DNA of 40,407 nucleotides, taken from Nitrospirota bacterium. GTDB lineage: Bacteria > Nitrospirota > Nitrospiria > JACQCE01. Of this stretch, positions 1 through 31,267 are shown one piece after another. Positions within the stretch are counted from its first letter, which is position 1. Each line of letters opens with the position of its first letter. The notes under the pieces are model-generated. The model saw only the letters and a program-made list of their open reading frames with translations. It was not told the origin of the DNA and searched no databases. The translations under genes and the position numbers were made by a program. Location of the stretch: assembly GCA_040755775.1 (NCBI GenBank), contig JBFMAJ010000001.1, positions 1-40,407 of the forward strand. Reading direction: 5' to 3'.

Positions 1-486
1 TTGATTATTTTGCTTGAGCCGCCGCATGCCGCGCTTCAGGCCGCCCCATTGCTGGCTGCCCTGCGGAGGGGATTCCCGGCCGTTCGGCTGGAGGTATTGG
101 TCCCGGACCACGCCGCCTCGGCGCTGGCCGGGAATCCCAATCAGGACGGGATCTTGACCGCGTCAGGGTCGCTCATGGAGAAGGTCCGAGCGGTTCGCTC
201 GCGCCGCTACGAGTTGGTGATCGATCTGACGAACAGCCCAGTTTCGGCGCTTCTGACCAGAATGGCCGGCGCCGGGATTCGGATCGGCTATCGAGCGGCA
301 TCCACCATATCAAAATGGCTCAAGCGCGCCCTCTGCTACACCCATACGATTATGGCGAAGCGGGAGCAACGCGGTCCCGTCCGCCACTATTTGCTGGTGA
401 GCGAAGCGCTCGGTCTCGACGCTGCGCCGCCGGAGCTCAGTCCCGATCCCGGAGAATCTCCGGCCATGATGAAATCGATGCGATGA
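1..486 (+). CDS. Glycosyltransferase family 9 (heptosyltransferase)-like protein, N-terminal half only; 5' end may be cut by the window edge
   Basis: ORF track 1..486. The translation IILLEPPHAALQAAPLLAALRRGFPAVRLEVLV...DLTNSPVSALLTRMAGAGIRIGY resembles the N-terminal Rossmann domain of ADP-heptose:LPS heptosyltransferases. The ORF stops after 161 aa, about half the usual GT9 length. Its stop overlaps the next start as ATGA (483-486). Confidence 0.45.
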   Translation: MIILLEPPHAALQAAPLLAALRRGFPAVRLEVLVPDHAASALAGNPNQDGILTASGSLMEKVRAVRSRRYELVIDLTNSPVSALLTRMAGAGIRIGYRAASTISKWLKRALCYTHTIMAKREQRGPVRHYLLVSEALGLDAAPPELSPDPGESPAMMKSMR

Positions 487-1421
487 GCGCGCTGGTGACC
501 GTGGTGATTCCGGCGTACAACCACGCCGACTATGTCGCTGAATGCATCACGAGCGTGCTGGAGCAGGATTATCCCGGCATCGAGCTGGTCGTCATCAATG
601 ACGGGTCGACCGATGACACGGATGCCGTCATCCGGCGTCTCCTGGGGGCGCGCCCCTCGGCGTTTCACTATATTGCCAAGGAGAATGAGGGCCTGGTGAA
701 GACGTTGAATCTCGCCCTGCGGCGCTCATCAGGTGAGTATTTCTGTCAGGTGGCATCGGATGACCTGCTGCTCCCCGGGAGCATCGCCGCGCGGGCGGGC
801 TTTCTGGACGCGCACCCGGAGGTCGACGCGGTGTTTGCCGACCTCTACGTCATGGAGGGAACGGTCAAAACGACGTCCCGCCCCTTTCAGACGCGCGTCG
901 GTTACGACAGCATCAAGCACAACCTGGGGGATCTGCTCGGCGACAGGGCGCGCCTCTTTTTCGCCAGCGGGATGATCCGTCGATCGATATTGGACCGTCT
1001 CGGCGGGTTTGACGAGGATTTTCGATACTATGAGGATCTCAGCCTGCGGGGGCGGTTGGCCCTCGCGGGGCGGATCGCCCATTTAAACGAGCCCGTGATG
1101 TACCGGCGGATGCATGCGCGCAACACGTCGAAGATCCCGCAATGGTTCGTGCAGGAAAAGATGCTGGCGCTGGAAAAAATTCTCGAGGATCGGGATGGCC
1201 GCCTAGGCCCTCTGAGGGAGGAGGTCTCAGGTTATTTGTTCAAAGAGTATCTACGGTATTGTCGCATGGCCCTCGAATTGGCGAAGGATGACGCGGCGTG
1301 GTTGACAAAAGCGGGGGAGGTGCTTGACAGGGCCGCGGCCATCAAACCCTATTCAATGAAGCGATGGTATTATCGTGGCCTGTGGATTATTCAAACATGG
1401 TGGAAGACCGGGCGGGTGTGA
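483..1421 (+). CDS. Glycosyltransferase family 2
   Basis: Internal ATG at 483 of ORF 315..1421 gives MSALVTVVIPAYNHADYVAECITSVLEQDYPGIELVVINDGSTDDT, a classic GT2 N-terminus. There is an acidic DD motif (ASDDLL) downstream. The ATGA overlap with the upstream ORF supports this start. Confidence 0.85.
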   Translation: MSALVTVVIPAYNHADYVAECITSVLEQDYPGIELVVINDGSTDDTDAVIRRLLGARPSAFHYIAKENEGLVKTLNLALRRSSGEYFCQVASDDLLLPGSIAARAGFLDAHPEVDAVFADLYVMEGTVKTTSRPFQTRVGYDSIKHNLGDLLGDRARLFFASGMIRRSILDRLGGFDEDFRYYEDLSLRGRLALAGRIAHLNEPVMYRRMHARNTSKIPQWFVQEKMLALEKILEDRDGRLGPLREEVSGYLFKEYLRYCRMALELAKDDAAWLTKAGEVLDRAAAIKPYSMKRWYYRGLWIIQTWWKTGRV

Positions 1422-2332
1422 TGCTTCCGAATTTTTTGATCATTGGCGCGCAAAAGTCCGGGACGACGTTTCTTTTCCGATGCCTGCGAGAGCACCCCGA
1501 GGTGTTCATGCCGCCTCGCGAAGTCCGGTTTTTCGAGGATCCTGAATATGGAAACGGCGACATCGGGCGGCTTGAAACGTTATTCCATGGCGTGAAACAC
1601 GAATCCGCGCTGGGCATCAAGCGGCCCGGCTACCTGGCCCGGCAGGGAGTAACCGCTCGCATTCATCGGCATCTTCCCAAGGCGAAGTTGATCGTGATTC
1701 TGCGCAACCCGCTGGACCGGGCGGTTTCAGCTTATTTTCATTTCATGCGGTGCGGTTTTCTTCCCGTCAGGCCGCTGTAATACGGCATGGCCCGGATTCT
1801 CGACGGCGAATACCAGAAGAGGCACGCCAAATCGGCGGAAGTTCTCAATTTTGGACTGTATCACCATCACCTATCGCGCTACCTGAAGTACTTCGACAGG
1901 AACCAGCTGCTGATTCTCCTGTATGAGGACATCAGTGCCGCTCCGCTCGCCGCCGTGCAACAGGCCTATCGCTTCATCGGCGTGAACGACGCCTATGCGC
2001 CGGACGGGCTGGCAAAGCGTTACAATGCGGGCGTCTATTCGCTGCCGCGGTTGCGCGTTCTCGGCCTGAGCAATCTCGTCCGGTATGACTACAGCGCCGA
2101 TCGAACGCGGCGCACACTAAAACAGCGATCCAGCGCCATCGGCCTGGCGATGAGCAAAATGGCCCACAAGGTTGAACGCTACGTGTTGCGAATGCCTGGC
2201 GCCGCCCGGCCGGACCTGAGCAATGAGCTCCAAGTGAGGCTGTACCGGGTATACGCGGAAGACATCGTCCACCTTGAAATGATGATCGGCCGGTCATTAA
2301 GCGGCTGGAAACCGACGACACGCGCGTCTTAG
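1421..2332 (+). pseudogene. PAPS-type sulfotransferase interrupted by one in-frame TAA (1778-1780)
   Basis: ORFs 1364..1780 and 1787..2332 are in the same frame, separated only by TAA TAC GGC. The 5' part has LIIGAQKSGTTF (5'-PSB loop) and LRNPLDRAVS (3'-PB-like motif). The 3' part continues a sulfotransferase C-terminal region (LLILLYEDI...FIGV). The ATG at 1421 overlaps the GT2 stop (TGATG). Confidence 0.7.
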
Positions 2333-2351
2333 GCCACATCGGATTCGTTGC

Positions 2352-4076
2352 ATGAACATTGTCGCGCTCCTGTCAGTGTATAACGAAGAGCCCTATCTGG
2401 CGCGATGCCTGCGCCATCTCCATGAACAAGGAATCGGGGCGTATGTGATTGATAACGGGTCGACTGATCGGTCGCCGGCGATTATCCGCTCGTTTTTGAA
2501 TCGTGGCGTCGTCGGTACTGAAGTTCAACCCCGTGCCGGCATATTTGAACTGGAGTCCCTGTTGCGCCGTGAAGAAGAGCTGGCGGCGGAGCTCGGGGCC
2601 GATTGGTATATGCACCATGACGCCGACGAAATCCGCGAAGCGCCCTCCCCATACCGCACCCTGCGCGAGGGGATCCAGGCGGCCGACGCCGCGGGGTACA
2701 ATGCCGTGAATTTCGATGAGTTCGTGTTCACGCCAACCGGATCCGACGAGAATTACGAGCACGATCGTTTCCCCGAAGAGATGGAGTGGTATTATTTTTT
2801 CCGCCCCCGTCGGCATTACCGGCTCAATGCATGGAAAAACTTCGGGCAGCGCGTCGATCTGCGCAGTTCCGGCGGACATTGCGTGAAGTTCGAGGGGCAG
2901 CGCGTGTATCCGCAAGATTTTATTCTGCGCCATTACATGATGCTGAGCCGTGCTCATGCCATTCGAAAATATTGCGGGAGGGTCTACAGCGAAGCGGAAA
3001 GAATGGAACGGAACTGGCACAACGCCCGAGCCGGCCTGCAGCCGGACCAGATTCACTTCCCGCCCAAGAGCCGTTTGCGCCGCATTTCGCATGATCGCGT
3101 ATGGGACCGCTCGGACCCCTGGACCAGACACCCGGTGTTTGAACAGGCGCGCCCGTCGGCCAAGCGGTCGAGAGCGACGACGCGGGCGTCCATGGGGCGC
3201 GCCCTTCCTCCCGCGCCGTTCATCGTAGGCAACGGCCGCTCCGGGACCACGCTGCTGCGGCTGATGCTGGACAGCCATCCGGATTTGGCCATTCCTCCAG
3301 AGACGCATTTCGTTCCGTCGATGATCAAGGAATTTCAAGGGAAATGGATCCTGTGGCAACCGGAAGCGTGGTTTTTCAAAACGTTGACCGGTCACCGGAG
3401 GTGGGCGGATTTTTGCCTCGATCCCGGCGCGCTCAGATCCAGCATTCGCTCAATCAAGCGCTTTGATCTGGCCGAGGGTTTCAGGGCCTTTTATCGCCTG
3501 TATGCCGAGCAACAGGGAAAATCACGTTGGGGGGATAAAACGCCGACGTATGTGGCCTCGATGGAGGCGATCCAAGACTATCTTCCCGAGGTTCGTTTCA
3601 TTCATCTGATCCGGGATGGACGCGATGTCGCCTTGTCCTTCCAGGGTTTGTGGTTTGGCCCCAAGTCCATTGAACAGGCGGCGAGCCAATGGGTGACGAC
3701 TATTCGGGAGGCGCGGCGCCAGGCTCAGCACCTTCAGCATTATGTCGAAATCAAATATGAGGATTTGATTGCCCGGACGCCGGACACGCTTCGGCGCATT
3801 TGCGAATTTATTGAACTCCCATGGAATGCCTCAATGCTGAATTATCATGAACGGGCGGGGGAACGGTTGAAGGAATTGCAGCGAGACATCGTGGCTCCGG
3901 CCGGCGAGCGCGTGGTCCGGGGCGAAGAACGAACGGCCATTCATCGGCTGACGGCGAGCCAGCCGGATGAAAGCCGAATCAACCGGTGGAAAACCGAAAT
4001 GGGTTCGGCTGACCAGACAAGCTTCGAGGCGATTGCCCGGACCATGCTTCGAGAGTTGGGATACGACGTTGAATAA
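2352..4076 (+). CDS. Bifunctional fusion: N-terminal GT2-like glycosyltransferase plus C-terminal sulfotransferase
   Basis: 574-aa ORF. The N-terminus MNIVALLSVYNEEPYLARCLRHLHEQGIGAYVIDNGSTDRS...HHDADE is GT2-like. After a basic linker, the C-terminal part has FIVGNGRSGTTLLRLML and IRDGRDVALS, the sulfotransferase PAPS-binding motifs. Confidence 0.8.
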   Translation: MNIVALLSVYNEEPYLARCLRHLHEQGIGAYVIDNGSTDRSPAIIRSFLNRGVVGTEVQPRAGIFELESLLRREEELAAELGADWYMHHDADEIREAPSPYRTLREGIQAADAAGYNAVNFDEFVFTPTGSDENYEHDRFPEEMEWYYFFRPRRHYRLNAWKNFGQRVDLRSSGGHCVKFEGQRVYPQDFILRHYMMLSRAHAIRKYCGRVYSEAERMERNWHNARAGLQPDQIHFPPKSRLRRISHDRVWDRSDPWTRHPVFEQARPSAKRSRATTRASMGRALPPAPFIVGNGRSGTTLLRLMLDSHPDLAIPPETHFVPSMIKEFQGKWILWQPEAWFFKTLTGHRRWADFCLDPGALRSSIRSIKRFDLAEGFRAFYRLYAEQQGKSRWGDKTPTYVASMEAIQDYLPEVRFIHLIRDGRDVALSFQGLWFGPKSIEQAASQWVTTIREARRQAQHLQHYVEIKYEDLIARTPDTLRRICEFIELPWNASMLNYHERAGERLKELQRDIVAPAGERVVRGEERTAIHRLTASQPDESRINRWKTEMGSADQTSFEAIARTMLRELGYDVE

Positions 4077-4875
4077 TCCGGCGGCCCGGCTCGAATCGGA
4101 TCGGTCGGTTTGGCCGATTATCATCGGGGGCTGTTACCGGTCCGGCACAAGCCTGCTGCGACGAATGCTCGACAGCCATAGCCGGATTTATTGCGGCCCC
4201 GAGGTGAAGTTCTTCAAGGATTTTTACGGCGATTACCTGCGCGATCCCTTATCCCACGTTCGCTTTTTTAAGACAGTCCGCGATCTGGGGATCGAGGACG
4301 CCGTGCTGCTGCGCCTGTTCGGAACGCCCTGGGTGGAAGCGCACCGGATCGCGGCGCACCAGCAGGGGAAATCCCGCTGGGCCGATAAGAATCCCGAAAA
4401 CGTCCTGTACCTGACGCAGTGGGATGTCTTGTTGGAGGGCCGTTTCTTGTTTGTTCACTGCGTCCGTGATCCTCTTGATACCCTGGCGTCCATTCAGGAG
4501 GCGAGGTTCCCGCTCGCCATCCCGGAGGATTTTGACGGCCGGGTCGCGGTGTATCGAACCTTTGTGAAAGCCGGCCTTGAATTTGAAGCACGCGCTCCTG
4601 GGCGCAGCGTTCGAGTCCGATATGAAGAACTGGTTGAGGAGCCGCGCCAGTGCTTGAGTCGGCTGATGGACGGCCTCGGCGAAAAATTCGAGGAGGGGAT
4701 GCTGAGTTTTAATGCGAACCGCCACCAAAAGGGCTTGGAGGACCCCAAAGTCGCGTCGACCACCGAGGTCCATCGAAGGAGCCTCGGACGGGGACGGAGG
4801 GACTTGACGAAGGAACAAATACGAGTTGTGGTTACACAGTGCGCGAACCTGTTCGCGCAGCTTGACTATTCCTGA
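4069..4875 (+). CDS. Sulfotransferase
   Basis: ORF 3967..4875. Motifs IIIGGCYRSGTSLLRRML and VRDPLDTLAS. I prefer the TTG at 4069, which overlaps the upstream stop, because the ATG at 3967 would overlap the previous gene by 110 nt. The start is uncertain. Confidence 0.7.
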   Translation: MNNPAARLESDRSVWPIIIGGCYRSGTSLLRRMLDSHSRIYCGPEVKFFKDFYGDYLRDPLSHVRFFKTVRDLGIEDAVLLRLFGTPWVEAHRIAAHQQGKSRWADKNPENVLYLTQWDVLLEGRFLFVHCVRDPLDTLASIQEARFPLAIPEDFDGRVAVYRTFVKAGLEFEARAPGRSVRVRYEELVEEPRQCLSRLMDGLGEKFEEGMLSFNANRHQKGLEDPKVASTTEVHRRSLGRGRRDLTKEQIRVVVTQCANLFAQLDYS

Positions 4876-5702
4876 AAAAATCGGCGAAAGTCAAACCATC
4901 GGCGGGGTTCTTGCCTGGGAGGCTGTCGCCATCGCTCGGCGGCCTCGAGATAGCCGAAGTATTTCAGGCCCGGCTCCGCCACCCGCTGTACATCCGCAAG
5001 AACGGCGGGATCCTGCTGCCGCCAACGGCCGATCGACGACGGCCATTCGATTGTGGACAACAAGCGGTCGATGGAGCGATGCTCCGGTGCGCCGAGAAAC
5101 CGATACATCCGCTCAATGACCGGCCGTGGATCCCGGCACAGCTCTTCGAAGATGACGGCCAGATAACGCTGTTTCAATTCGCCCTCCCCGTATTCCGCGG
5201 CCCGGAGGTTGACGGTGTTCCATAAGGCCCCAGCTTGAACCGGCGGCAAAAGCGATTGGGCGTCGTGATCCAGCACATGAGCGCCGAAATTGCGAAGCTG
5301 ATTCTTATTGTCGGAAAACGCCATGTCGCGCCCGTCGCGCACGACATGAATAAATTTCATGTGAGGGTACAGGCCGTGGAAAAACGGCAAGAGGTAGATA
5401 CTGGGCGGTATTTTCCATCCCCAGCGGGCGTCGGGATCCGGCATCCGCTCGAGATGCCGTCGAACGCAGGCAAGAAATTCTTCCTTCATGCGCGCGCCTT
5501 GGTCGTCCGTGAGCGACCCTGTCACGTAGGGAACGATCCATTTGGAATTGAATGCATCGAACCACAGGGCGTCTTCGGACACGTTGAGGTGCGTCCCCAT
5601 GAACACCCCGGCGCTCCGGACGATTCTCGCGATAACCCGCGTTCCGGATCCGCCGATGGCTCCGATGACGACCGGATGGGATCGTACGGCCGTTGTGTGC
5701 AT
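4866..5702 (-). CDS. Sulfotransferase
   Basis: 278-aa ORF with VVIGAIGGSGTRVIARIV (P-loop-like 5'-PSB) and VVRDGRDMAFS. It is convergent with the previous sulfotransferase and overlaps it by 10 nt at the 3' ends. Confidence 0.75.
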   Translation of the reverse strand: MHTTAVRSHPVVIGAIGGSGTRVIARIVRSAGVFMGTHLNVSEDALWFDAFNSKWIVPYVTGSLTDDQGARMKEEFLACVRRHLERMPDPDARWGWKIPPSIYLLPFFHGLYPHMKFIHVVRDGRDMAFSDNKNQLRNFGAHVLDHDAQSLLPPVQAGALWNTVNLRAAEYGEGELKQRYLAVIFEELCRDPRPVIERMYRFLGAPEHRSIDRLLSTIEWPSSIGRWRQQDPAVLADVQRVAEPGLKYFGYLEAAERWRQPPRQEPRRWFDFRRFFQE

Positions 5703-5750
5703 GGCCCGGCATTATAACGCGTCGCGCGAGGATTGCAAAGCGGGATCGCC

Positions 5751-5780
5751 TTGACAAGAATGCGGCAAGAAGATTACGCT
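5751..5780 (+). promoter_or_regulatory. Candidate sigma70-type promoter (TTGACA-N18-TACGCT)
   Basis: TTGACA at 5751-5756 and TACGCT at 5775-5780, in the divergent intergenic region upstream of the 5813 gene. Confidence 0.35.
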
Positions 5781-5812
5781 ACGTTGATTTGTATCGATCA
5801 TGAGGGATCCTT

Positions 5813-6733
5813 TTGTCGATCGCTCCTCCCATTCATGACGGCGGCGCGCCAGCCGGCATCCGCTGCGTCCGGCCGCCGGTGATCATCACCGGCATGCACC
5901 GATCGGGCACGACGTTGGTGTCGCAGTGCCTGCACCGGCTGGGATTGTTTCTCGGCATCAGCATGCAACAGGAGTATGAATCGCTCTTTTTTTTGTCCAT
6001 CAATGAAGAAATCTTCAGGCGGACGGGCGGCAGTTGGGATCAACCGTCGCCGGTGCGCTATTTGACCCAATGCCCCGAGGCGTTCCAGATGATCGTCCGC
6101 TGCCTGCGCGAGGATCTGCTGTCTTCCCGCGTCCGCGGCTATCTGGGGTTGCGCCGCCATCTTCAGTGGCGCTCCATCACGAGCTATGACCAGCCGTGGG
6201 GATGGAAGGATCCCCGCAGCGTGTATACGCTTCCGCTTTGGCTGGAAGTCTTCCCCGGCGCGAAGATTGTGTATATCATCAGGAACGGCGTCGACGTGGC
6301 GCACAGCCTGGTGCAACGGTCGCATCGCGTTGTGGAATCGGACAAGCGAAAATTCGCACGCCGGCTTCGCGAGCGCAAGAGCAAATCGGCGCTGCAGCGG
6401 GCGGGATTTATGGGGTCGACGCGCTGCCTCGATCTTGAACGGAGTTTTGCCCTGTGGGAGGAATACGTGTCCTACGCCGACAGGTTGCTGGCCGAGATCA
6501 AGAACGAGCGGTTCATCCTGAAGTACGAAGAGCTGTTGAGCCGGCCCGAGGCGCATCTGGCGCCGCTGGCCGAGTTTTGCGGGTTGACCCCGCCGGACGA
6601 AGGCCGCCTCAACGCGTTGACGGCGATGATCGACCCGAACCGGGGAAACGCCTTCACGGCGGATCCGTTGCTCCAGGACTATCACGCGCGAGTCAAGAAC
6701 ACCCACTGGATGCGCCGTCTGGGATATGGATAG
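5813..6733 (+). CDS. Sulfotransferase
   Basis: 306-aa ORF with a TTG start. Motifs VIITGMHRSGTTLVSQCL and IIRNGVDVAHS. Confidence 0.75.
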   Translation: MSIAPPIHDGGAPAGIRCVRPPVIITGMHRSGTTLVSQCLHRLGLFLGISMQQEYESLFFLSINEEIFRRTGGSWDQPSPVRYLTQCPEAFQMIVRCLREDLLSSRVRGYLGLRRHLQWRSITSYDQPWGWKDPRSVYTLPLWLEVFPGAKIVYIIRNGVDVAHSLVQRSHRVVESDKRKFARRLRERKSKSALQRAGFMGSTRCLDLERSFALWEEYVSYADRLLAEIKNERFILKYEELLSRPEAHLAPLAEFCGLTPPDEGRLNALTAMIDPNRGNAFTADPLLQDYHARVKNTHWMRRLGYG

Positions 6734-6742
6734 GATCGACCG

Positions 6743-7819
6743 ATGAAAGCGCTCATCGCCGCGGGCGGCCGGGGGACGAGGCTCCGCCCGATCACGCATA
6801 CCAGCAACAAACACCTGATTCCGATCGCCAACAAGCCGATGCTTTTTTACGCGATCGAGGCGGTGGCGGCGGCCGGCATCCGGGAGATCGGCATCGTGTT
6901 CGATCCCGAAAGCCACGCGGCGATCAGCAAGGCCATCGCGCCATTCGCCCGCCAGGGGCTCCGGTTCACCCTGATGATTCAGGACGCGCCCCGCGGGCTG
7001 GCGCACGTCGTCAAGGTGGCGGAACCATTCATCGCGGGCGAGCCGTTCGTATTCCATCTGGGCGACAATCTGATGACGAATGACGTGGGCCGGTGCGTGC
7101 GGATGTTCGAGGCGCGCAAGTTGAATTGCCTGCTCGTGCTGGCCCAGGTCAAGGAGCCGCAGCGGTTCGGCGTGGCCGAAATTCGGGACGGACAGGTGAT
7201 CAGGGTCGAAGAGAAGCCGGCCAATCCCAAGAGTCCGTATGCCGTCACCGGATTGTACGTGTACGACCGGTCGGTTTTCGAAGCCGTCGCCGCGCTGCAT
7301 CCCAGCGCGCGCAACGAGCTGGAAATTTCCGACGCGCATCAGTACCTGATCGATCAGGGGTTCCAGGTCGGCTACACGGAAGTGGCGGGCTGGTGGAAGG
7401 ACACCGGAAAGCCGGAGGATCTGCTGGAGGCGAACCGGCTCGTGCTCGAGCAGCTCCTGGCGCGCGGCGGCTCGGTAATCAACGGCGAGGTGGACGAGGC
7501 CTCCGTGATCGACGGCAACGTGATCATCGAGGCGGGCGCGCGGGTCACGGCCAGCCGGCTGCGCGGCCCGTTGATCATCGGCGAACGGTGCGTGATCGAC
7601 GGCAGCGAGCTCGGTCCGTTCCTGTCGGTCGGGCCGGCGTGCCGCATCGTCCACAGCCGGATCGCGGACAGCATTCTGTTGGAAGAGTGCCGGGTCGAGG
7701 CGGTGGACGCGAGGATCGAGCGCAGCCTGCTGGGCCGCGGCGTGGAGCTGATCAAGGGGGGCGGCCCCGCCAGCCAGCGGATGATTCTGGGCGACGTGAG
7801 CCGGATCGAGTTCCCGTGA
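6743..7819 (+). CDS. rmlA: Sugar-1-phosphate nucleotidylyltransferase, long-form glucose-1-phosphate thymidylyltransferase-like, with a C-terminal left-handed beta-helix region
   Basis: MKALIAAGGRGTRLRPITHTSNKHLIPIANKPMLFY is the canonical G-x-G-T-R-L nucleotidyltransferase N-terminus. The 358-aa length and the C-terminal I/V-G-x hexapeptide-like repeats fit the long form. Confidence 0.85.
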   Translation: MKALIAAGGRGTRLRPITHTSNKHLIPIANKPMLFYAIEAVAAAGIREIGIVFDPESHAAISKAIAPFARQGLRFTLMIQDAPRGLAHVVKVAEPFIAGEPFVFHLGDNLMTNDVGRCVRMFEARKLNCLLVLAQVKEPQRFGVAEIRDGQVIRVEEKPANPKSPYAVTGLYVYDRSVFEAVAALHPSARNELEISDAHQYLIDQGFQVGYTEVAGWWKDTGKPEDLLEANRLVLEQLLARGGSVINGEVDEASVIDGNVIIEAGARVTASRLRGPLIIGERCVIDGSELGPFLSVGPACRIVHSRIADSILLEECRVEAVDARIERSLLGRGVELIKGGGPASQRMILGDVSRIEFP

Positions 7820-7831
7820 AACGAGCCGTCA

Positions 7832-7875
7832 GCGATGGGGGGTGTCGGGGGGAGAGGAGCATCTCCCCCCGATTG
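7832..7875. repeat. G-rich hairpin element, copy A (10-bp stem 7845-7854 / 7863-7872)
   Basis: GCGATGGGGGGTGTCGGGGGGAGAGGAGCATCTCCCCCCGATTG lies in the rmlA-rmlC intergenic gap. It is near-identical in layout to the element at 23694-23741. Confidence 0.6.
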
Positions 7876-7901
7876 AGCGAGTGCGTGGAGCACGAGCGGA
7901 T

Positions 7902-8381
7902 ATGATTCACGGAGTCCTCATCAAAGACTTAAAGGTATTATCCGATGACCGTGGATTTCTTATGGAAATGCTGCGCTCAGATGAGCCGATGTATGAGCGC
8001 TTCGGTCAGGTCTACATCACCGGCTGCAAGCGTGGCGTCGTCAAGGGCTGGCATTATCACAAAGAGCAGACCGATCATTTTATTTGCGTGCTGGGGCGGG
8101 CGCTGGTGGTGCTCTATGATCCCCGGGACGGCTCTCCGACCAAAGGCGCGGTGGAAGAGTATTACCTGGAGGCGCCGCCGGCCGCGAGCCGTCCGTCGAT
8201 CCTGTTGAAAATTCCCCCCTACGTCTATCACGGGTTTACACCCTCCGGGTGCGACGAGGCGCGCATTATCAACGTCCCGACGCTGCCCTACCGGCATGAG
8301 CAGCCGGACGAGTTCCGCCACCCCTGGAACAGCGCCGATATCCCGTATCGGTGGCCCGCGGACATAACACGGGGGGGATAA
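7902..8381 (+). CDS. rmlC: dTDP-4-dehydrorhamnose 3,5-epimerase-like cupin (short RmlC family)
   Basis: Internal ATG at 7902 of ORF 7842..8381. MIHGVLIKDLKVLSDDRGFLMEM...VVKGWHYHKEQTDHF matches the RmlC-type cupin pattern. The gene abuts rmlB (stop 8379-8381, ATG 8382). Confidence 0.7.
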   Translation: MIHGVLIKDLKVLSDDRGFLMEMLRSDEPMYERFGQVYITGCKRGVVKGWHYHKEQTDHFICVLGRALVVLYDPRDGSPTKGAVEEYYLEAPPAASRPSILLKIPPYVYHGFTPSGCDEARIINVPTLPYRHEQPDEFRHPWNSADIPYRWPADITRGG

Positions 8382-9443
8382 ATGCGGCTCCTCGTCACCG
8401 GCGGCGCGGGATTTATCGGGAGCAATTTCGTCCGATATATTCTCGATCGGTATCCGCGTTATCACGTCGTCAATCTCGACAAGCTGACCTACGCGGGGAA
8501 CCGGAACAATCTCAAGGACCTGGCTCAGTCGCCGCGCCATCGCTTTATCAAGGGCGACATCTGCGACCGCCCTCTGGTCTTTCGGCTGGCCTCGCGCGTC
8601 GACGCGATCATCAATTTCGCGGCCGAGACGCATGTCGATCGTTCAATTCGCGAGGCGGCGCCGTTTCTGCGCACCAATTTCGAGGGCACCGGGACGCTGC
8701 TGGAGGCGGCCCATCGCCACCGGCACGCCCGCTATCTGCAAATCTCCACGGATGAGGTGTACGGCAGCATCGCGCGCGGCCGGGCCGGCGAGGAGGCGCC
8801 GCTGCGCCCGAGCAATCCGTACGCCGCCTCCAAGGCGGGCGCCGATCTGCTGGTGCTGGCGTATTGGAGCACCCACCGGTTGCCGGCGCTCATTTCGCGT
8901 TGTTGCAACAACTACGGCCCGCACCAATACCCGGAAAAGCTGATCCCGCTGTTCATCACCAACGCGCTGATGGGATTGCCCCTCCCGCTCTACGGCGACG
9001 GCCTGCATCGCCGCGACTGGATCCACGTGCGGGATCACTGCCGCGCCGTGGATCTGCTGCTGCATCACGGGTCGCCGGGAAACGTGTATAATGTAGGCGG
9101 AAGCGGGGAACGGACCAATTTGGCGGTGGCTCGCCGGATTGCCGCCCAGATGCGGTCGTCCTCTCCCATCGAGCACGTGACGGATCGTCCGGGCCATGAC
9201 CGGCGCTACGCCATGCGGGATGGGAAGGCTCGGGCCATCGGTTATCGGCCGGCGGTCTCTTTTGTGGACGGAGTGGCCGAAACCGTCGAATGGTATCGGA
9301 CGCACCGGGCCTGGTGGGAGCGGATTCGGGGCGGCGCGTTCCGGCGCTATTATCGGCGGCAGTATGACCGGTCCGCCGCGCGTTCCGGCCTCAACGGGCG
9401 GGCGCCGGCGAGGCCGAGCGCGGGGGTCAGAAGGGGAGCGTAA
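8382..9443 (+). CDS. rmlB: dTDP-glucose 4,6-dehydratase
   Basis: MRLLVTGGAGFIGSNFVRYIL...NLDKLTYAGN...YAASKAGADLL carries the SDR GxxGxxG motif, the YxxxK motif and the characteristic LDKLTYAGN motif. Confidence 0.9.
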   Translation: MRLLVTGGAGFIGSNFVRYILDRYPRYHVVNLDKLTYAGNRNNLKDLAQSPRHRFIKGDICDRPLVFRLASRVDAIINFAAETHVDRSIREAAPFLRTNFEGTGTLLEAAHRHRHARYLQISTDEVYGSIARGRAGEEAPLRPSNPYAASKAGADLLVLAYWSTHRLPALISRCCNNYGPHQYPEKLIPLFITNALMGLPLPLYGDGLHRRDWIHVRDHCRAVDLLLHHGSPGNVYNVGGSGERTNLAVARRIAAQMRSSSPIEHVTDRPGHDRRYAMRDGKARAIGYRPAVSFVDGVAETVEWYRTHRAWWERIRGGAFRRYYRRQYDRSAARSGLNGRAPARPSAGVRRGA

Positions 9444-10807
9444 TGGCGATTCGGGAAAAACACACACGACAGGCGAACCGCTCACGGAACAGCGCCGAGG
9501 CGCTGCGGAAAAAAATCGAATCGAAGCAGGCCCGGGTCGGCGTGATTGGATTGGGTTACGTGGGGTTGCCCCTGGCCGTCGAGTTCGGCAAGGCCGGGTA
9601 CGCCGTCGTCGGGGTGGACATCGACGCCAAGAAGGTCAAATCGCTCAACGCCGGCCAGTCCTACATCCAGGATGTGCCGTCCAGGGAGGTCGCCGCGCTG
9701 ATCAAAGCGGGCCGCCTGACGGCAACCGACGATTTTCACGTCCTATCGTCGCTCGATACCATTACCATTTGCGTGCCGACGCCGCTGCGAAAGACCAAGG
9801 ATCCCGACATTTCCATGATCATGGAGGCGCTGCAGGAAATCGCGCGCCATCTGCACGCCGGCATGCTGGTTGTGCTCGAAAGCACCACCTATCCGGGAAC
9901 CACGGAGGAAGTGGTCAGGCCCGAGCTGGAGCGGCAGGGCTTGACCGTCGGCAAGGAAATTTTTCTGGCTTTTTCGCCGGAGCGGGTCGATCCCGGCAAC
10001 CCGACGTTTCATACCAAAAACACGCCCAAGATCATCGGCGGCGCCACGCCGGACTGCACCGAATTGGCGGTGGCGCTCTACCGGACGGCGATCGAGACGG
10101 TGATTCCCGTCAGCTCATCCCGGGCGGCCGAAATGGTCAAGCTGCTCGAAAACACCTTCCGCGCCATCAACATCGGGCTGGCGAACGAGGCGGCGATCAT
10201 GTGCGGGCGCCTCGGCATCAACGTGTGGGAGGTGATCGACGCGGCGGCGACCAAACCGTTCGGGTTCATGCCGTTTTATCCCGGGCCGGGCCTGGGCGGG
10301 CACTGCATCCCCATCGATCCGCTCTACCTATCGTGGAAGCTCAAAACGCTCGACTATAACGCCCGGTTCATCCAGTTGGCGAGCGAGATCAACACCCATA
10401 TGCCGCACTACGTCGTCGAAAAGATCGCCGCGGCGCTCAACGAGCGCCGGAAAAGCGTGAACGGCTCGCGCGTCCTGATCCTCGGCGTCAGTTACAAGCG
10501 GGACGTGGAGGATCTGCGGGAATCGCCCGCGCTCGACATCATCCGGCTGCTTCGGCAGCGGGGCGCCTCGGTGGCCTACGCCGATCCGTATAATCCGACG
10601 CTGCGGCTGGGCGAGCACGGCGATGGCGAGCTTCTGCAGTCGGTCTCGCTGCCCGGAGCGCTGGCCGGCCGGGATTGCGCCGTCATCGTGACGGATCATC
10701 GCGCGATCGATTATCAGCAGGTCGTCGACCGCTCGGCGCTGGTTATCGACACCCGAAACGCGACGAAAGCGGTCACGCGCGGCCGGGACAAAATCATCAC
10801 CTTGTGA
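9443..10807 (+). CDS. Nucleotide-sugar 6-dehydrogenase (UDP-GlcNAc/ManNAc dehydrogenase family; WbpA/TviB/WecC-like)
   Basis: 454 aa. ARVGVIGLGYVGLPLAVEF is the NAD-binding motif. GGHCIPIDP carries the catalytic Cys. The ATG overlaps the rmlB stop (TAATG). Confidence 0.85.
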   Translation: MAIREKHTRQANRSRNSAEALRKKIESKQARVGVIGLGYVGLPLAVEFGKAGYAVVGVDIDAKKVKSLNAGQSYIQDVPSREVAALIKAGRLTATDDFHVLSSLDTITICVPTPLRKTKDPDISMIMEALQEIARHLHAGMLVVLESTTYPGTTEEVVRPELERQGLTVGKEIFLAFSPERVDPGNPTFHTKNTPKIIGGATPDCTELAVALYRTAIETVIPVSSSRAAEMVKLLENTFRAINIGLANEAAIMCGRLGINVWEVIDAAATKPFGFMPFYPGPGLGGHCIPIDPLYLSWKLKTLDYNARFIQLASEINTHMPHYVVEKIAAALNERRKSVNGSRVLILGVSYKRDVEDLRESPALDIIRLLRQRGASVAYADPYNPTLRLGEHGDGELLQSVSLPGALAGRDCAVIVTDHRAIDYQQVVDRSALVIDTRNATKAVTRGRDKIITL

Positions 10808-10816
10808 GGGAGCGCC

Positions 10817-11746
10817 ATGTATCTGGTGACGGGCGGAGCGGGATTCATCGGGTCGCACATCGTCGGCGCGTTGGTTGCGCGCGGCGAGCGGGTGCGCGTG
10901 CTCGACAACTTGTCCACCGGCAAGGAGGAATATCTCGCCCCTTACCGGAGCGCCATCGAATTTCATAAGGGCGACATCCGTGACGGGCGCGCCTGCGCCG
11001 AGGCCATGAAGGGCGTCCGCTTCGTGCTGCATCAGGCGGCGCTGCGCTCCGTGCCGCGCTCGGTGGACGATCCGCTGCCGACCGATGAGGTCAACGTCCA
11101 CGGCTCCCTGCTGGTGCTGCAGGCGGCCCGCGCCGCGGGGGTGCGGCGCCTCGTGTACGCGTCGTCATCGTCGGCCTATGGCGACAACCCCGCGCTGCCC
11201 AAGGTGGAGTCGATGACGCCGATGCCGCGCTCCCCGTACGCGGTCAGCAAGCTGACGGCCGAATACTACTGCCGCGTCTACACCCACACGTACGGGCTGT
11301 CGACCGTCTCGCTTCGCTACTTCAACGTCTACGGGCCCCGCCAGGACCCGCGGTCGCAGTACGCGGCCGTGGTTCCCGCGTTCATTCACGCGATCAGAAA
11401 CGACCAACCCGGCGTCATCTACGGCGACGGGGAGCAATCGCGGGATTTCACCTTCATCGAGGACTGCGTGGCGGCAAACTTGTTGGCCTGCACGGCGCCG
11501 GGAGTCGACGGAGAGGTCTTCAACATCGCGTACGGCGCCAAGACGTCGATCAATCAGATCTACGACGCCATTGGCTCACTGCTGGGGCGCCGCCTGCCGG
11601 CCACGTACGAACCGGCGCGGGCCGGCGACGTCCGCCACACGCTCGCCGATTTGACGCGCGCGCGCGAGCGACTGGGGTACCGGCCCGCCACCGACATCTC
11701 GGCGGGATTGGAGCGAACGGTCCGATGGTTCGTCGAGCACGAATGA
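10817..11746 (+). CDS. NAD-dependent nucleotide-sugar epimerase (WbpP/TviC-like SDR)
   Basis: MYLVTGGAGFIGSHIV...YAVSKLTAEYY, 309 aa, directly downstream of the dehydrogenase. This dehydrogenase-plus-epimerase pairing is typical. Confidence 0.8.
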   Translation: MYLVTGGAGFIGSHIVGALVARGERVRVLDNLSTGKEEYLAPYRSAIEFHKGDIRDGRACAEAMKGVRFVLHQAALRSVPRSVDDPLPTDEVNVHGSLLVLQAARAAGVRRLVYASSSSAYGDNPALPKVESMTPMPRSPYAVSKLTAEYYCRVYTHTYGLSTVSLRYFNVYGPRQDPRSQYAAVVPAFIHAIRNDQPGVIYGDGEQSRDFTFIEDCVAANLLACTAPGVDGEVFNIAYGAKTSINQIYDAIGSLLGRRLPATYEPARAGDVRHTLADLTRARERLGYRPATDISAGLERTVRWFVEHE

Positions 11747-12546: not shown

Positions 12547-13626
12547 TCACCGCATCCGGCTCAGCAAGCCGATTCCCGCCAACAGCAGCACGCCGTTCGC
12601 CAGCCACGCCGCCGCGGGCGGATCCAGCAGGCCTTTCAGGCCTGACGCGACGGCGTAGGCGTGCGCGAGCGCGTAGACGATGCTGATCATGATGGCCGCG
12701 GCGACGTTCTGCGCCACCTGCGGCCCGCGTCCGTAGCGCATGCCCAAGGCGACCCCGATCAACATCAGCAGCGCCGAGGAGGCCGGCACGGCGAGCTTGG
12801 CGTAGTAATTGATCTCATACCGGGCGCTGGCTAGGCCCGACCGGCGGAGTTGGTCGATGTATTGCGCAAGCTGCGGACCGTCCACTTCGTCCGGATCCAG
12901 CACGATGTCGCGAAAGTCCGACGGGTTTTTGTTCAGGTCGACGGGCGTCCGGTGCAGGGCCTCCGTGACGACCGATCGGTCGGGCTGAAATCGCCATCGC
13001 GTGCCCTCCGCGATCCACCACTGCCCCTCCCGGTACTCGATCGAGGCCGCCTCCGTCAACTCTTCGAGCGAAAAATCGGGGGCCAACCGGTAAATGGTGA
13101 CGCCGTGCAGCACCGCCAGCGTCGGATGCACCAACTGGATGTTCATCAGCCGCTGGCGGTCTACTTGGAGCCACACCCGGTTTTGGCCGAAGAGCGCTTT
13201 CTTGGCGCGGGCGGGCAATTGCGAGTCCCTGATCAACTCCGCCTGCCGGGTGGCGACCGGAATGACAGTCCAATTGGCGGCCGCCAGCAGACTGCTGGAC
13301 AGGATGCCGAACAGGACCAGTGGAAGGACGATTCGCCACGGCGCCAGGCCCGCCGTTCGCATGGCGAGCAGTTCGTGCCGCTTGCTCATCAGGCCCAATG
13401 AGAGAATCGCGGCCATCAGCGTGGCAATGGGCACCAGGATCAGGAGCATCTGACCGAAATGGAGGAGCAGATAGGCGGCGAATTTTCCCAGGGGTAGCGG
13501 ATTCGCGGCGTCCCGGCGCAACCGGGTGAAAATATCGATCGCTTCCGTCACGATCGCGAGCGTCAGGAAGATCAGGCTCCAGGCTCGAAGAAATTCGCGG
13601 AGCAGGTACCGGTGCAGCAGCAACAT
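12547..13626 (-). CDS. lptG: LPS export ABC permease, LptG-like (YjgP/YjgQ family)
   Basis: MLLLHRYLLREFLRAWSLIFLTLAIV is the typical N-terminus. Multi-TM profile, 359 aa, second gene of an lptF-lptG-type pair. Confidence 0.75.
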   Translation of the reverse strand: MLLLHRYLLREFLRAWSLIFLTLAIVTEAIDIFTRLRRDAANPLPLGKFAAYLLLHFGQMLLILVPIATLMAAILSLGLMSKRHELLAMRTAGLAPWRIVLPLVLFGILSSSLLAAANWTVIPVATRQAELIRDSQLPARAKKALFGQNRVWLQVDRQRLMNIQLVHPTLAVLHGVTIYRLAPDFSLEELTEAASIEYREGQWWIAEGTRWRFQPDRSVVTEALHRTPVDLNKNPSDFRDIVLDPDEVDGPQLAQYIDQLRRSGLASARYEINYYAKLAVPASSALLMLIGVALGMRYGRGPQVAQNVAAAIMISIVYALAHAYAVASGLKGLLDPPAAAWLANGVLLLAGIGLLSRMR

Positions 13627-13631
13627 GCCCG

Positions 13632-14753
13632 CTAGGCCCGGCTGCGGGGCGCAAACGACCGAGCCAGCAAGCCGGCCGTCAAGACCAGCAGCACGCCGTT
13701 CGGCAGCCAGGCGGCCGCCAGCGGCGGGAGCATCCGAGTCTGCGCCACGGCGTCGGCGGCCGTCATCAGCAGATAGTAGGCCAGCAGCGCGGCCAGGCCA
13801 GCCGCAAACCCGCCGAAGCGGCCTCCGCGCGAGGACACCAGCCCCAGCGGCAGCCCTAAGACGGCCAACAGCAGACAGGCCGCCGGCAGCGCGTGATAGC
13901 CTTCGTACGTGGCCAACCGGCCCAACTCGGCCGGCTGGACGGGGCCACCGGTCCGAAGCTGGTATTTGATGGCCGCAATGTCGCGCTGCTCGGCGAGGGG
14001 CGTGCGGATGAGGTTCGAGAGATCGATCCGTCGCAAATACCGGTCGAAAAAAATCCGCTGATAGGGGCCGCCCGGCTCGGGCTTGCGGTGGAGGCTGCCC
14101 TGCTGCAACGTCAACTCCAGCCGCTGGGTGACCCGGTTGACTTCAATCACGCCGCGGTTGGCCACGGCGAATTGCGGATCGTCCGGATTGCGGTAATCGA
14201 AGACGAAGACGCCGTCGAATTCGGCCGGGCGAGGTGCCGCCTTGACGTAGAGGATCAGGCCGCCCTCCAGCGGCTGGAAGCGCCCTTCCTCAATGACGAT
14301 CGCGGCGTGCTCCTGGCCCAGCAGATTGACGGCAAACTCCCGGAGCGATTCTCCGCTGATCGGTTCGCCGACGTTCAGCAGCACCGACGCCGCCAGCGCG
14401 ACGCCGCCCGCGAACAGCACGACCGGCCGCAACAGGCGCCACGGCGACACCCCCAGCGCCCAGAGCGCGAGCAGTTCCCGATCGCCAGCCAGGCGATTGA
14501 ATGCCGAGGCGGACGCGATCAAGGTGGCGACGGGCAACGCCAGCACGAGCATCAAGGGAAGCAGATAGAGCAGCAGCTTCGCGACCGCTTCCGTGCCCAC
14601 GCCTCGGGCGACGATCCATTCCATCAGGCGCAATCCCTGCTGCATGGTCAAAATAAGCAAAAAGACGCCCAGCGTCAGACCGAACGGCACGGCCAATTCG
14701 GCCAGGATATAGCGGTCCATGCGGCGAAACGGGACGGGCGCGGAGGGAAACAT
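13632..14753 (-). CDS. lptF: LPS export ABC permease, LptF-like (YjgP/YjgQ family)
   Basis: ORF 13632..14825 contains ...RRMDRYILAELAVPFGLTLGVFLLIL. Possible starts are the ATG at 14753 or the ATG at 14720. The start is uncertain. Confidence 0.75.
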   Translation of the reverse strand: MFPSAPVPFRRMDRYILAELAVPFGLTLGVFLLILTMQQGLRLMEWIVARGVGTEAVAKLLLYLLPLMLVLALPVATLIASASAFNRLAGDRELLALWALGVSPWRLLRPVVLFAGGVALAASVLLNVGEPISGESLREFAVNLLGQEHAAIVIEEGRFQPLEGGLILYVKAAPRPAEFDGVFVFDYRNPDDPQFAVANRGVIEVNRVTQRLELTLQQGSLHRKPEPGGPYQRIFFDRYLRRIDLSNLIRTPLAEQRDIAAIKYQLRTGGPVQPAELGRLATYEGYHALPAACLLLAVLGLPLGLVSSRGGRFGGFAAGLAALLAYYLLMTAADAVAQTRMLPPLAAAWLPNGVLLVLTAGLLARSFAPRSRA

Positions 14754-14847
14754 GGGGCCACTATAACGGAATCGCGGCGGCTTGTAAACAACGGCGGGAT
14801 GCGGCGAAAACCGTCGATTTTTCACTGACTTTTCATCGGTCCGTTCC

Positions 14848-14876
14848 TTGACAGCCCCCGGGTCCTATGGTACCGT
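14848..14876 (+). promoter_or_regulatory. Candidate promoter (TTGACA-N17-TACCGT)
   Basis: TTGACA at 14848-14853 and TACCGT at 14871-14876. If real, the ATG at 14867 lies upstream of the transcription start. That favours the ATG at 14918 for the TPR gene. Confidence 0.3.
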
Positions 14877-14917
14877 TTTTCGACGAGGCATTTTCATGTC
14901 GATGCGACAGGCGATCT

Positions 14918-17887: not shown

Positions 17888-17896
17888 GGAGGCGCC

Positions 17897-18724
17897 ATGG
17901 ATTATTTGGAGTACTACCAGCTCAAGGAGCAACCCTTCTCGATCGCCGTCGACAACCGCTTCTACTACAACAGCAGCCAGCACAGCGAGGCGCTGATCCG
18001 GCTGCGCTACGCGGCGGACACGCAGAAGGGGCTGGCGCTGCTGGTGGGCGACGTCGGGGCTGGCAAGACGACGCTGGCCCGCCGGCTGCTCGACGAGCTG
18101 GATGAGCGGTTCTTTCACGCGGCGCTGCTGGTCGTGATCCATGCGGGGGTCACGCCCGAATGGCTCGTGAGAAAGATCACGATGCAATTGGGGGTGGAAA
18201 AACCGTCCGATGACAAAACCGAGCTGCTGTCCCAGTTGTACCGGCGGCTGGTGGAGCTCCATGATCAGAACAAAAAAGCGGTCGTGCTGATCGACGAGGC
18301 GCAAATGCTCGGCACCAAGGGGCTCATGGAGGAGATTCGCGGCATTCTGAACATCGAGCTGGATGGCCAGAAGCTGCTGACGTTCGTGCTGTTCGGCCTG
18401 CAGGAGCTGGACAACAACCTGTCCTTGGACTTGCCGCTCAAGCAACGGGTGGCGATCCGCTATCAATTGACCTCGTTCACGCTGGCGACGACGGAGGATT
18501 ACGTCCGGTACCGGTTGCAAATCGCCGGGGCCACGCGGGACCTCTTCAGCAAATCGGCCCTCAAGGCCGTGCACGACTACTCGGGAGGGATCCCGCGGCT
18601 GATCAACACCATCTGCGACAACGCGCTGCTCGAGGGGTTTTTGCGCAAGAAGGAGCAGTTGGAGCCGGAGTTGATCCGCGAGGTGGCCGCCGATTTGAAG
18701 CTGCTCGAGCCCGCCGGCGCTTGA
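17897..18724 (+). CDS. ExeA/GspA/MshM-like AAA ATPase (short form, no C-terminal peptidoglycan-binding domain)
   Basis: MDYLEYYQLKEQPFSIAVDNRFYYNSSQHSEAL is the typical ExeA-family N-terminus. Walker A is GDVGAGKTTL and Walker B is VVLIDEAQ. It also has the GGIPRLINTICD motif. 275 aa. Confidence 0.85.
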   Translation: MDYLEYYQLKEQPFSIAVDNRFYYNSSQHSEALIRLRYAADTQKGLALLVGDVGAGKTTLARRLLDELDERFFHAALLVVIHAGVTPEWLVRKITMQLGVEKPSDDKTELLSQLYRRLVELHDQNKKAVVLIDEAQMLGTKGLMEEIRGILNIELDGQKLLTFVLFGLQELDNNLSLDLPLKQRVAIRYQLTSFTLATTEDYVRYRLQIAGATRDLFSKSALKAVHDYSGGIPRLINTICDNALLEGFLRKKEQLEPELIREVAADLKLLEPAGA

Positions 18725-21003: not shown

Positions 21004-21031
21004 CGGGCGCAACCGTGAGCGGCGTGCGCGC

Positions 21032-27910: not shown

Positions 27911-28021
27911 GGTTGAGGGTAAGTGAAGGGCGAGGAGCTTGTCAATAGATTCGGGGAACGGTTTCCAACGGCGTTGAGCGGCAGGACGACATTGGACGGC
28001 AGGTTTGAACCCCTTGTCTTC

Positions 28022-28050
28022 TTGACAGAAAGGGCGATCACCCCTACCTT
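28022..28050 (+). promoter_or_regulatory. Candidate promoter (TTGACA-N17-TACCTT)
   Basis: TTGACA at 28022-28027 and TACCTT at 28045-28050, upstream of the GTG at 28094. Confidence 0.35.
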
Positions 28051-28093
28051 TTCTATTGAGGGCGTGGTACGGCCGCCCGGAGAAGGGAACGAC

Positions 28094-31152: not shown

Positions 31153-31164
31153 GTCGGCGCTTCC

Positions 31165-31262: not shown

Positions 31263-31267
31263 AACTT

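Follow-up and report, generated by a model that had tools for sequence, protein, structure and literature searches.

Four intact sulfotransferase genes and an interrupted fifth in a candidate cell-surface polysaccharide locus of a Nitrospirota bacterium

To our knowledge, only a handful of cases of bacterial polysaccharide sulfation have been elucidated, namely those of rhizobia, of synechan in Synechocystis and of a few marine capsules. The rhizobial sulfotransferases (STs) that we know of are encoded by single genes, which are neither organized in arrays nor fused to a glycosyltransferase (GT). Capsule clusters containing STs have been published for marine Vibrio and Cobetia. In cyanobacterial sulfated-polysaccharide systems, STs are combined with the standard Wzx/Wzy or ABC machinery, and the xss system of Synechocystis comprises two ST genes, xssA and xssE, together with the regulators XssQ/R/S (PMC13125312). 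For Nitrospira and the Nitrospirota, our literature search for sulfotransferases or cysC retrieved nothing specific. Here, we analysed a contig of 40,407 bp from the metagenome-assembled genome (MAG) of a Nitrospirota bacterium (JBFMAJ010000001.1; "the window" in the following denotes this contig at its full length), which carries a set of four intact ST genes (ST2 to ST5) and a fifth that is interrupted by a nonsense codon (ST1), next to glycosyltransferase and nucleotide-sugar genes. We consider it probable that this block constitutes the modification part of a cell-surface polysaccharide locus, in which the four intact STs would sulfate the glycan.

The original prediction had proposed five stretches that each contain an ST domain with both motifs for binding of 3'-phosphoadenosine-5'-phosphosulfate (PAPS), and all five indeed score above the Pfam gathering cut-offs of the ST profiles, which are 22 or 27 bits. 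ST1 (positions 1421 to 2332, plus strand) matches Sulfotransfer_1 (E 3.6e-20, 72.9 bits), whereas the best matches of ST2 (3204 to 4076, plus strand; E 1.1e-33, 117.8 bits), ST3 (4069 to 4875, plus strand; E 1.2e-22, 81.7 bits), ST4 (4866 to 5702, minus strand; E 2.1e-13, 51.5 bits) and ST5 (5813 to 6733, plus strand; E 6.7e-19, 69.4 bits) are to Sulfotransfer_3, with ST5 additionally matching Sulfotransfer_1 (E 1.9e-10). A local iterative search of the window yielded no ST domain beyond these five. The 5'-phosphosulfate loops read QKSGTT in ST1, GRSGTT in ST2, YRSGTS in ST3, GGSGTR in ST4 and HRSGTT in ST5, and the R-x7-S motifs for the 3'-phosphate (in the same order LRNPLDRAVS, IRDGRDVALS, VRDPLDTLAS, VRDGRDMAFS and IRNGVDVAHS) align in one column block across all five proteins. 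By alignment only, a Glu is also present in the segment following the 5'-phosphosulfate-binding helix of ST1 (PPREVRFF), ST3 (GPEVKFF), ST4 (VSEDALWF) and ST5 (EYESLFF), while the corresponding PPETHF of ST2 aligns to PPELHL of the CurM ST (E 8e-13), a segment which we take to carry the catalytic Glu and His of that family. Judged from their sequences, the five ORFs (open reading frames) are PAPS-type sulfotransferases and not other P-loop proteins, as the profile check for such an assignment also indicates.

The five STs are also distinct, as had been proposed. No pair exceeds 30% identity, a value found for ST2 and ST3, ST4 and ST5 share 23.5% (E 2e-15), and the similarity of ST1 to the other four is confined to the surroundings of the P-loop. 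Since identities are this low, the five cannot be recent duplicates, and a recent tandem duplication is ruled out.

The count of five ORFs, however, has to be revised, since an in-frame TAA at positions 1778 to 1780 (plus strand; CCG CTG TAA TAC GGC ATG) means that 1421 to 2332 is not an open frame, which leaves four intact genes and one broken one. The stop codon splits the ST1 frame into 1364/1421 to 1780, which holds both PAPS motifs, and 1787 to 2332 in the same frame, and it is spanned by the Pfam match as well as by the alignment to PDB entry 3rnl (E 4.6e-32, residues 3 to 302). Among 459 homologues found, all of those listed are uninterrupted and have a length of about 300 to 320 aa, and the database searched contained no protein identical to ST1. 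From our point of view, ST1 is probably either a pseudogene, which the nonsense codon would have inactivated, or the product of an error in the consensus or assembly of the MAG. As far as its class is concerned, the sequence places ST1 among the carbohydrate STs of Sulfotransfer_1, with PDB matches to the heparan-sulfate enzymes 3-OST-1/-3/-5 and NDST1 (E 5e-16 for 3-OST-1 to 1e-12) and with its N-terminal 190 residues aligning to 3-OST-1, 3-OST-5 and NDST1.

ST2 is the C-terminal domain of a fusion protein encoded at 2352 to 4076 (plus strand), the product of which is identical to MEW6323750.1, named "MAG: sulfotransferase". Its N-terminal part (2352 to 3137) is a GT-A domain of GT2-like type (Pfam Glycos_transf_2, 34.2 bits; Glyco_tranf_2_4, 31.6 bits), and the Sulfotransfer_3 match covers residues 290 to 492. 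A second, stand-alone GT2 is encoded at 486 to 1421 (plus strand; Pfam Glycos_transf_2, E 1.6e-26, model positions 1 to 165 of 168), for which no NCBIfam equivalog scored above its cut-off, and the two together bear out that GT2 domains are interleaved with the STs. In an alignment of 32 full-length homologues of the fusion (46 to 60% identity), the GT residues D34, N35, S37, D39 and D90-x-D92-E93 are invariant, the DxD motif of the window protein being D90-A-D92-E93. Within the ST2 domain of the same alignment, S297, G298, T318, K390, G394, D422-D425 and S429 are invariant, and conservation is at least 90% for R296, T300, E317, K396 and R421. The AlphaFold2 (AF2) model of the fusion (mean predicted local distance difference test 93.4, predicted template modelling score 0.91) shows a disordered linker at residues 276 to 282, and Foldseek matched its C-terminal domain, which is of the tyrosylprotein sulfotransferase (TPST)/CurM-ST type, to TPST1/2, the OLS ST and the CurM ST (E 4e-13 for TPST1 to 1e-10) and its N-terminal domain to the GT-A enzymes SunS/ThuS, SpsA, TarS and WrtF, the last being an O-polysaccharide fucosyltransferase (E 1e-7 to 2e-5). 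Given these conserved residues and fold matches, both halves of the predicted protein look catalytically competent. The fusion architecture itself is widespread, with more than 100 related clusters listed, including full-length matches in Thermodesulfobacteriota and the cyanobacterium Trichocoleus and matches to the ST half only in Rubrobacter and Solirubrobacterales; a scan of a genome collection for fusion relatives gave a single match with 34% identity.

ST3, ST4 and ST5 are single-domain proteins of 268 to 306 aa that correspond to MEW6323751.1 to MEW6323753.1; the NCBI name of all four intact ST genes is "sulfotransferase". For two of the three, the start codons of the original prediction fit the respective families better than the NCBI calls. 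The NCBI start of ST3 at ATG 3967 would give 302 aa and an overlap of 110 nt with the fusion gene, whereas in the orthologues, which have 263 to 288 aa, this overlap is no more than a few to about 14 nt, so that we consider ATG 3967 less likely than TTG 4069. In the case of ST4, MEW6323752.1 has 244 aa, begins at Met35 and lacks the P-loop; this start was rejected in favour of ATG 5702 (278 aa) since the N-terminus VIGAxGGSGTRV is at least 90% conserved in 13 homologues. The loop GGSGTR of ST4 has no K or R ahead of the Ser. A degenerate P-loop was nevertheless rejected, as GGSGTRV is conserved across the family (601 homologues found; R122 and S130 of the family are invariant), and the variant loop thus represents, as far as sequence can tell, a family trait and not decay. 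At its C-terminus, ST4 has ~28 residues that the other members of the family lack and that run into the 3' end of ST3, and the predicted 10-nt overlap of the two 3' ends (4866 to 4875) is real. Between the divergently oriented ST4 and ST5 lies a spacer of 110 bp (5703 to 5812) with a promoter-like site for ST4 on the minus strand (TTGCAA-16-TATAAT, 5738..5711; 10/12, a consensus match only). ST5, finally, has 306 aa and belongs to a large uncharacterised family with 669 representatives at 50% identity (E<=1e-30); its PDB sequence matches are marginal, one of them being mycobacterial Stf1.

As to the acceptors, one could argue that some of the STs act on a peptide, in the manner of TPST or RaxST, on a lipid or on a secondary metabolite. 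The best solved relatives of ST2, ST3 and ST4 are indeed tyrosylprotein sulfotransferases and the ST domains of the CurM/OLS polyketide systems, and the marginal match of ST5 to Stf1 points in the same direction. However, the similarity to TPST and CurM amounts to only 20 to 24% identity and reflects the shared fold, ST2 forms one polypeptide with a glycosyltransferase whose DxD motif is intact, and the block contains no precursor-peptide, polyketide synthase or lipid-synthesis genes. Moreover, the neighbourhoods of ST1 to ST4 homologues that were examined are glycan clusters, for instance a Wzx/Wzy cluster with sulfatase-family and heparinase II/III-like genes around a 61% identical ST1 homologue (L088; L001 to L090 denote the loci of homologues whose neighbourhoods were compared) and a group of GT4 and GT2 genes around a 47% identical ST4 homologue (L089). 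We hence regard non-glycan acceptors as very improbable. The sugar genes of the window itself agree with the glycan-cluster context that had been proposed.

Further evidence for a glycan acceptor comes from the relatives of the fusion, which is 63% identical in L012 (over the N-terminal 310 residues), 61% in L090, 57% in L002 and 54% in L003/L004. In the four closest relatives, the fusion gene lies directly behind wzm and a wzt with a Wzt_C carbohydrate-binding domain, and it likewise follows wzm and a Wzt_C-bearing wzt in L005 and L046. In L032, where wzm and a Wzt_C-bearing wzt also precede the fusion, an ST4 orthologue (49%) stands between wzt and the fusion, and in L010 a Wzt_C-bearing wzt is found about 1.1 kb downstream of it. 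In L001, L006 to L009, L011 and L013, the surroundings of the fusion showed no wzt. An ST3 orthologue directly follows the fusion in L090 (63%), L002 (60%), L009 (49%) and L010 (47%), a recurrence which makes the predicted fusion and ST3 a conserved module of two genes. APS (adenosine 5'-phosphosulfate) kinase genes are located beside or inside the module in L005 (7282 to 7950) and L046 (4598 to 5158), and L001 encodes a CysN-CysC fusion (20437 to 21798) near its ST cluster; the co-location of APS kinase in relatives fits a dependence on PAPS.

The arrangement in the relatives also invites another reading of the sulfate, namely that it is not a decoration of the repeat but a chain-terminating cap. 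The module, consisting of the fusion, ST3 and ST4/ST5-type enzymes, would then build a sulfated residue at the non-reducing end, and this terminus would stop polymerisation and serve as the ligand of the carbohydrate-binding module (CBM) of Wzt prior to export, with the Nitrospirota locus being a rearranged copy. In the model systems for such a mechanism, wbdD and wbbB sit directly after wzt. The position of the fusion is alike in 7/8 relatives with an adjacent wzt, where it follows wzt directly or after wzt plus one ST gene, and Wzt_C is present on Wzt in all eight (L002, L003, L005, L010, L012, L032, L046 and L090). In four loci, the gene that follows the fusion encodes a protein with an N-terminal ST5-like domain (L003, 11756 to 14824; L046, 5149 to 7629; L006, 12609 to 15164; L009, 6282 to 7778), which is 26 to 28% identical to ST5 where tested (L003 and L009) and is followed by stretches of 108 to 234 residues that are free of Pro and Gly, charged and heptad-patterned. 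The L003 protein ends in a C-terminal GT4, so that these proteins would have a layout of terminator, ruler and polymerase; wzm and a Wzt_C-bearing wzt are adjacent to the respective gene in L003 and L046 and were not seen in L006 and L009. [quoted passage not shown] A sulfate cap would have its counterparts in the E. coli O8/O9a and Klebsiella O4/O7/O12 antigens, which are capped by methyl, phosphomethyl and Kdo. It would also fit the wb(salmo) cluster of Aeromonas salmonicida, an ABC-2-transporter cluster with an ST-domain ORF19 (216 aa) immediately after wzt that is conserved among strains, since no sulfate is reported by its authors for the structure of the O-antigen (PMC4483657), as would be expected of a group that occurs once per chain and not in the repeat unit. 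Our search of the open-access literature for a sulfotransferase linked to Wzt, WbdD or the termination of chains did not retrieve any account of a sulfate terminator.

For the window, however, several observations speak against a cap. It contains neither wzm nor wzt, four or five STs exceed the need of one cap, and no long Pro/Gly-free charged stretch was seen in the ORFs of the block when their translations were read by eye, no formal scan having been made. The AF2 model of the fusion contains no coiled-coil ruler helix, its longest helix having about 19 residues, and ST5 is a stand-alone protein. [quoted passage not shown] Overall, we consider a sulfate cap unlikely for this locus.

We return to the more probable explanation, sulfation along the glycan by the four intact STs. 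Multiple STs in one locus are not exceptional. A 514-kb metagenome contig from soil (L036) holds an independent array of equal size, with five Sulfotransfer_3 genes interleaved with two GT4 genes within 7.1 kb (3775 to 10879; Pfam-confirmed), L005 has four ST-bearing genes and L002 three consecutive ones, and three or four consecutive ST ORFs were found by local homology search, without Pfam check, in L033, L034, L028 and L025. The ST counts of L036, L032 and L002 were confirmed with Pfam; the iterative phmmer count, which drifted in round four and took up off-frame ORFs in loci of high G+C content, serves as a pointer only. Arrays such as the one described here are hence common in environmental bacteria.

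Downstream of ST5, the sugar-nucleotide genes that had been predicted are largely present. The stop codon of ST5 (6733) is tightly followed by the co-oriented start of rmlA (6743 to 7819, plus strand), which encodes a long-form glucose-1-phosphate thymidylyltransferase (TIGR01208, 381 bits, cut-off 320; Pfam NTP_transferase, E 1e-49), and RmlB, the dTDP-glucose 4,6-dehydratase, is encoded at 8382 to 9443 (plus strand; TIGR01181, 430.6 bits, cut-off 365.1). The cupin between them (7842 to 8381, plus strand; Pfam dTDP_sugar_isom, E 2.4e-13) is RmlC-like but not a canonical RmlC (NCBIfam rmlC, 39.9 bits, cut-off 155.75), and RmlD was not recognised among the proteins scanned with NCBIfam, the best score of 46 bits coming from RmlB itself. 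The rml set is incomplete in this respect, and its product may be a dTDP-6-deoxyhexose other than rhamnose. The predicted UDP-sugar dehydrogenase and epimerase genes are likewise real, namely a nucleotide-sugar 6-dehydrogenase (9443 to 10807, plus strand; TIGR03026, 440.7 bits, cut-off 189.8) and an SDR (short-chain dehydrogenase/reductase)-family nucleotide-sugar epimerase (10817 to 11746, plus strand; Pfam Epimerase, E 2.4e-65). The best specific NCBIfam models of the former are UDP-ManNAc dehydrogenase and TviB, both below cut-off, and the latter is nearest to TviC (255.7 bits, cut-off 760), a UDP-GlcNAcA 4-epimerase, so that in sequence the two look more like WecC/TviB and TviC than like Ugd and GalE. 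With such a TviB/TviC-like pair, the sugar may be an N-acetylhexosaminuronic acid. The epimerase gene is followed by a DUF3108 gene and, on the minus strand, by lptG and lptF for the LPS (lipopolysaccharide) export permeases (12547 to 14825; Pfam LptF_LptG, E 3.5e-66 and 1e-65).

At the other end of the block, the contig starts with a heptosyltransferase-like GT9 remnant (1 to 486, plus strand; Pfam Glyco_transf_9, E 3.5e-8), of which residues 63 to 144 match model positions 6 to 83 of 247. Its ORF ends at residue 161, corresponding to about model position 83 to 100; the C-terminal nucleotide-sugar-binding half is missing, and there is no space for it downstream. A search of the fragment against the PDB gave no useful match. 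That this truncation abuts the GT2/ST block suggests that the block was inserted or has recombined there. The glycan context of the window thus comprises the GT9 remnant, GT2, rmlA, rmlB, the dehydrogenase, the epimerase, lptF and lptG. In view of lptF/G, the remnant of GT9 and the location of the relatives' fusions behind wzm and wzt, an LPS O-polysaccharide is the most likely product, and a capsule or exopolysaccharide is less likely.

The signs of rearrangement to which the overlap of ST3 and ST4 had first pointed have thereby become more numerous, and they raise the question whether the block could be a decaying or reshuffled remnant of a horizontally acquired O-antigen fragment, which has lost its transporter genes and yields no sulfated product. 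The nonsense codon in ST1, the end of GT9 at about model position 83 to 100, the inversion of ST4 with its unique 28-aa tail into the 3' end of ST3, and a G+C content of 0.54 to 0.60 over positions ~1200 to 6000 compared to 0.63 to 0.66 in the flanks (4 to 6 points lower in the block) all fit such a history, as does the lack of the wzm and wzt genes that are found ahead of the fusion in its four closest relatives (54 to 63% identity). Nevertheless, neither the four ST genes nor the two GT2 domains are shortened, and they retain all family-invariant residues. Moreover, the genes are closely spaced and run in one direction into the rml genes, a good promoter-like site precedes ST4, and the stop codon, a single one in the consensus of a MAG, may go back to an error or to a variant carried by a minority. 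Taken together, a remnant without a product appears quite improbable to us.

It has to be noted that some observations weigh against our preferred interpretation of the block as the modification part of a polysaccharide locus. With queries from the relatives (E<=1e-5), neither wzm nor wzt was detected in the 40-kb window, whose only ABC ATPases are those of a Liv-type amino-acid transporter, and among the window ORFs scanned there was no Pfam family of the Wzx, Wzy or WaaL type. The Wza-like gene is 31 kb away from the block. An APS kinase was not detected on the contig with the L005 query (E<=1e-5). Profiles do not assign an acceptor specificity, since no ST reaches an NCBIfam equivalog: the sole match is that of ST2 to NoeE (40.7 bits, cut-off 500), and ST3, ST4 and ST5 have no NCBIfam matches at all. 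In addition, the nearest solved structures of ST2, ST3 and ST4 are of enzymes that use peptides (TPST) or polyketide intermediates (CurM) and not sugars, and with a broken ST1, a truncated GT9 and an aberrant ST4 tail the block could be partly decayed.

If the locus is active in vivo, the following sequence of events can be imagined. RmlA and RmlB, together with the cupin isomerase, would supply a dTDP-6-deoxyhexose, and the dehydrogenase and epimerase would supply a hexuronic acid that is possibly N-acetylated. On the cytoplasmic side of the membrane, a lipid-linked chain would then be extended with sugars by the stand-alone GT2 and by that of the fusion, and ST2, ST3, ST4 and ST5 would sulfate different hydroxyl or amino positions of the glycan from PAPS before export, whereby the fusion could couple glycosyl transfer with sulfation of the same or a neighbouring residue. 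As the fusion is found directly behind wzm and the CBM-bearing wzt in the four closest relatives, the ancestral setting of the fusion/ST3 module would have been an ABC-transporter-dependent pathway; in the window, the module may have been moved, or the transporter genes may have been lost from that position.

The rest of the window is unrelated to the block and includes a tetratricopeptide repeat (TPR) protein, two AAA_22 ATPases, the Liv-type ABC transporter and others. The TPR protein (1006 aa) and the first AAA_22 ATPase follow each other at 14867 to 18724, and the second AAA_22 ATPase is encoded about 10 kb further on (27923 to 28909), adjoining an HD-domain gene. The A/T skew swings from +0.13 to +0.20 over positions 13001 to 18000 to -0.19 to -0.33 over 20001 to 22000. 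A second region at 30007 to 38989, with a G+C content of 0.56 to 0.59 over 30 to 34 kb at its start, encodes an NTP_transf_5 protein, a PQQ/beta-propeller protein of 1042 aa, a radical-SAM/SPASM protein, the Wza-like protein (Poly_export/SLBB) and two ORFs without a Pfam match, and it may represent a separate cluster for peptide maturation or exopolysaccharide export.

Overall, the original prediction was largely correct in what it observed and reasonable in its interpretation. The locus belongs, however, to a common class of which no member has been studied experimentally, its genes had been annotated before, and the window exemplifies a frequent metagenomic pattern in a plausible but as yet unproven way. 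From our point of view, the main lead lies in the relatives and not in the window, namely in the fusion, its partner STs, the CBM-bearing Wzt and the coiled-coil ST proteins. These relatives define a widespread, uncharacterised family of GT2-sulfotransferase fusions with a conserved partner ST and show that this family is recurrently linked to ABC transporters bearing a CBM and to coiled-coil proteins. If the sulfate were a cap, the polymerase-terminator model would be extended and sulfate may be a new terminating chemistry; if it decorates the repeat unit, the locus would offer four distinct bacterial carbohydrate sulfotransferases for enzymology and polysaccharide engineering. Granular sludge and anammox granules have been found to contain sulfated polymers that resemble glycosaminoglycans, with the producer not known (PMC7356697), and the present locus adds the Nitrospirota to the candidate producers of sulfated polymers.

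How, then, does the locus relate to the systems described so far? Its likeness to the TPST, CurM-ST and OLS-ST class lies in the fold and in the PAPS-binding residues of ST2, ST3 and ST4, whereas the acceptors of TPST and CurM are tyrosine and beta-hydroxyacyl-ACP (acyl carrier protein), respectively, and the ST2 domain of the window is fused to a glycosyltransferase. ST1 is closer to 3-OST and NDST, which are carbohydrate sulfotransferases, and to 3rnl from Alicyclobacillus, to which it aligns over its whole length; the entry name of 3rnl does not give a function, and ST1 of the window carries a nonsense codon. With the rhizobial NodH, NoeE and LpsS, which act on Nod factor, LPS and K-antigen, the locus would share the PAPS-dependent sulfation of surface or secreted glycans, but the score of ST2 given above is too low for it to be a member of NoeE. 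ORF19 of A. salmonicida, a single ORF in its cluster, is comparable as an ORF with an ST domain in an O-antigen cluster. The terminator systems with a CBM-bearing Wzt that are compared here (WbdD of E. coli O9a as well as WbbB of Klebsiella O12, ORF7 of O4 and ORF6 of O7) resemble the relatives, in which the fusion and the ST-coiled-coil-GT proteins are encoded directly behind wzm and a Wzt_C-bearing wzt, but they differ from the window, which has no wzm, wzt or coiled-coil protein and whose fusion is devoid of a molecular-ruler helix. Lastly, the locus can be set beside xss, with which it shares the use of ordinary bacterial polysaccharide machinery. It differs from xss in its Nitrospirota host and in its four intact and one broken ST, and neither regulators of the XssQ/R/S type nor a transporter or polymerase were seen among the window ORFs scanned. 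As in the xss/synechan system, however, several PAPS-dependent STs and glycosyltransferases are joined in one locus.

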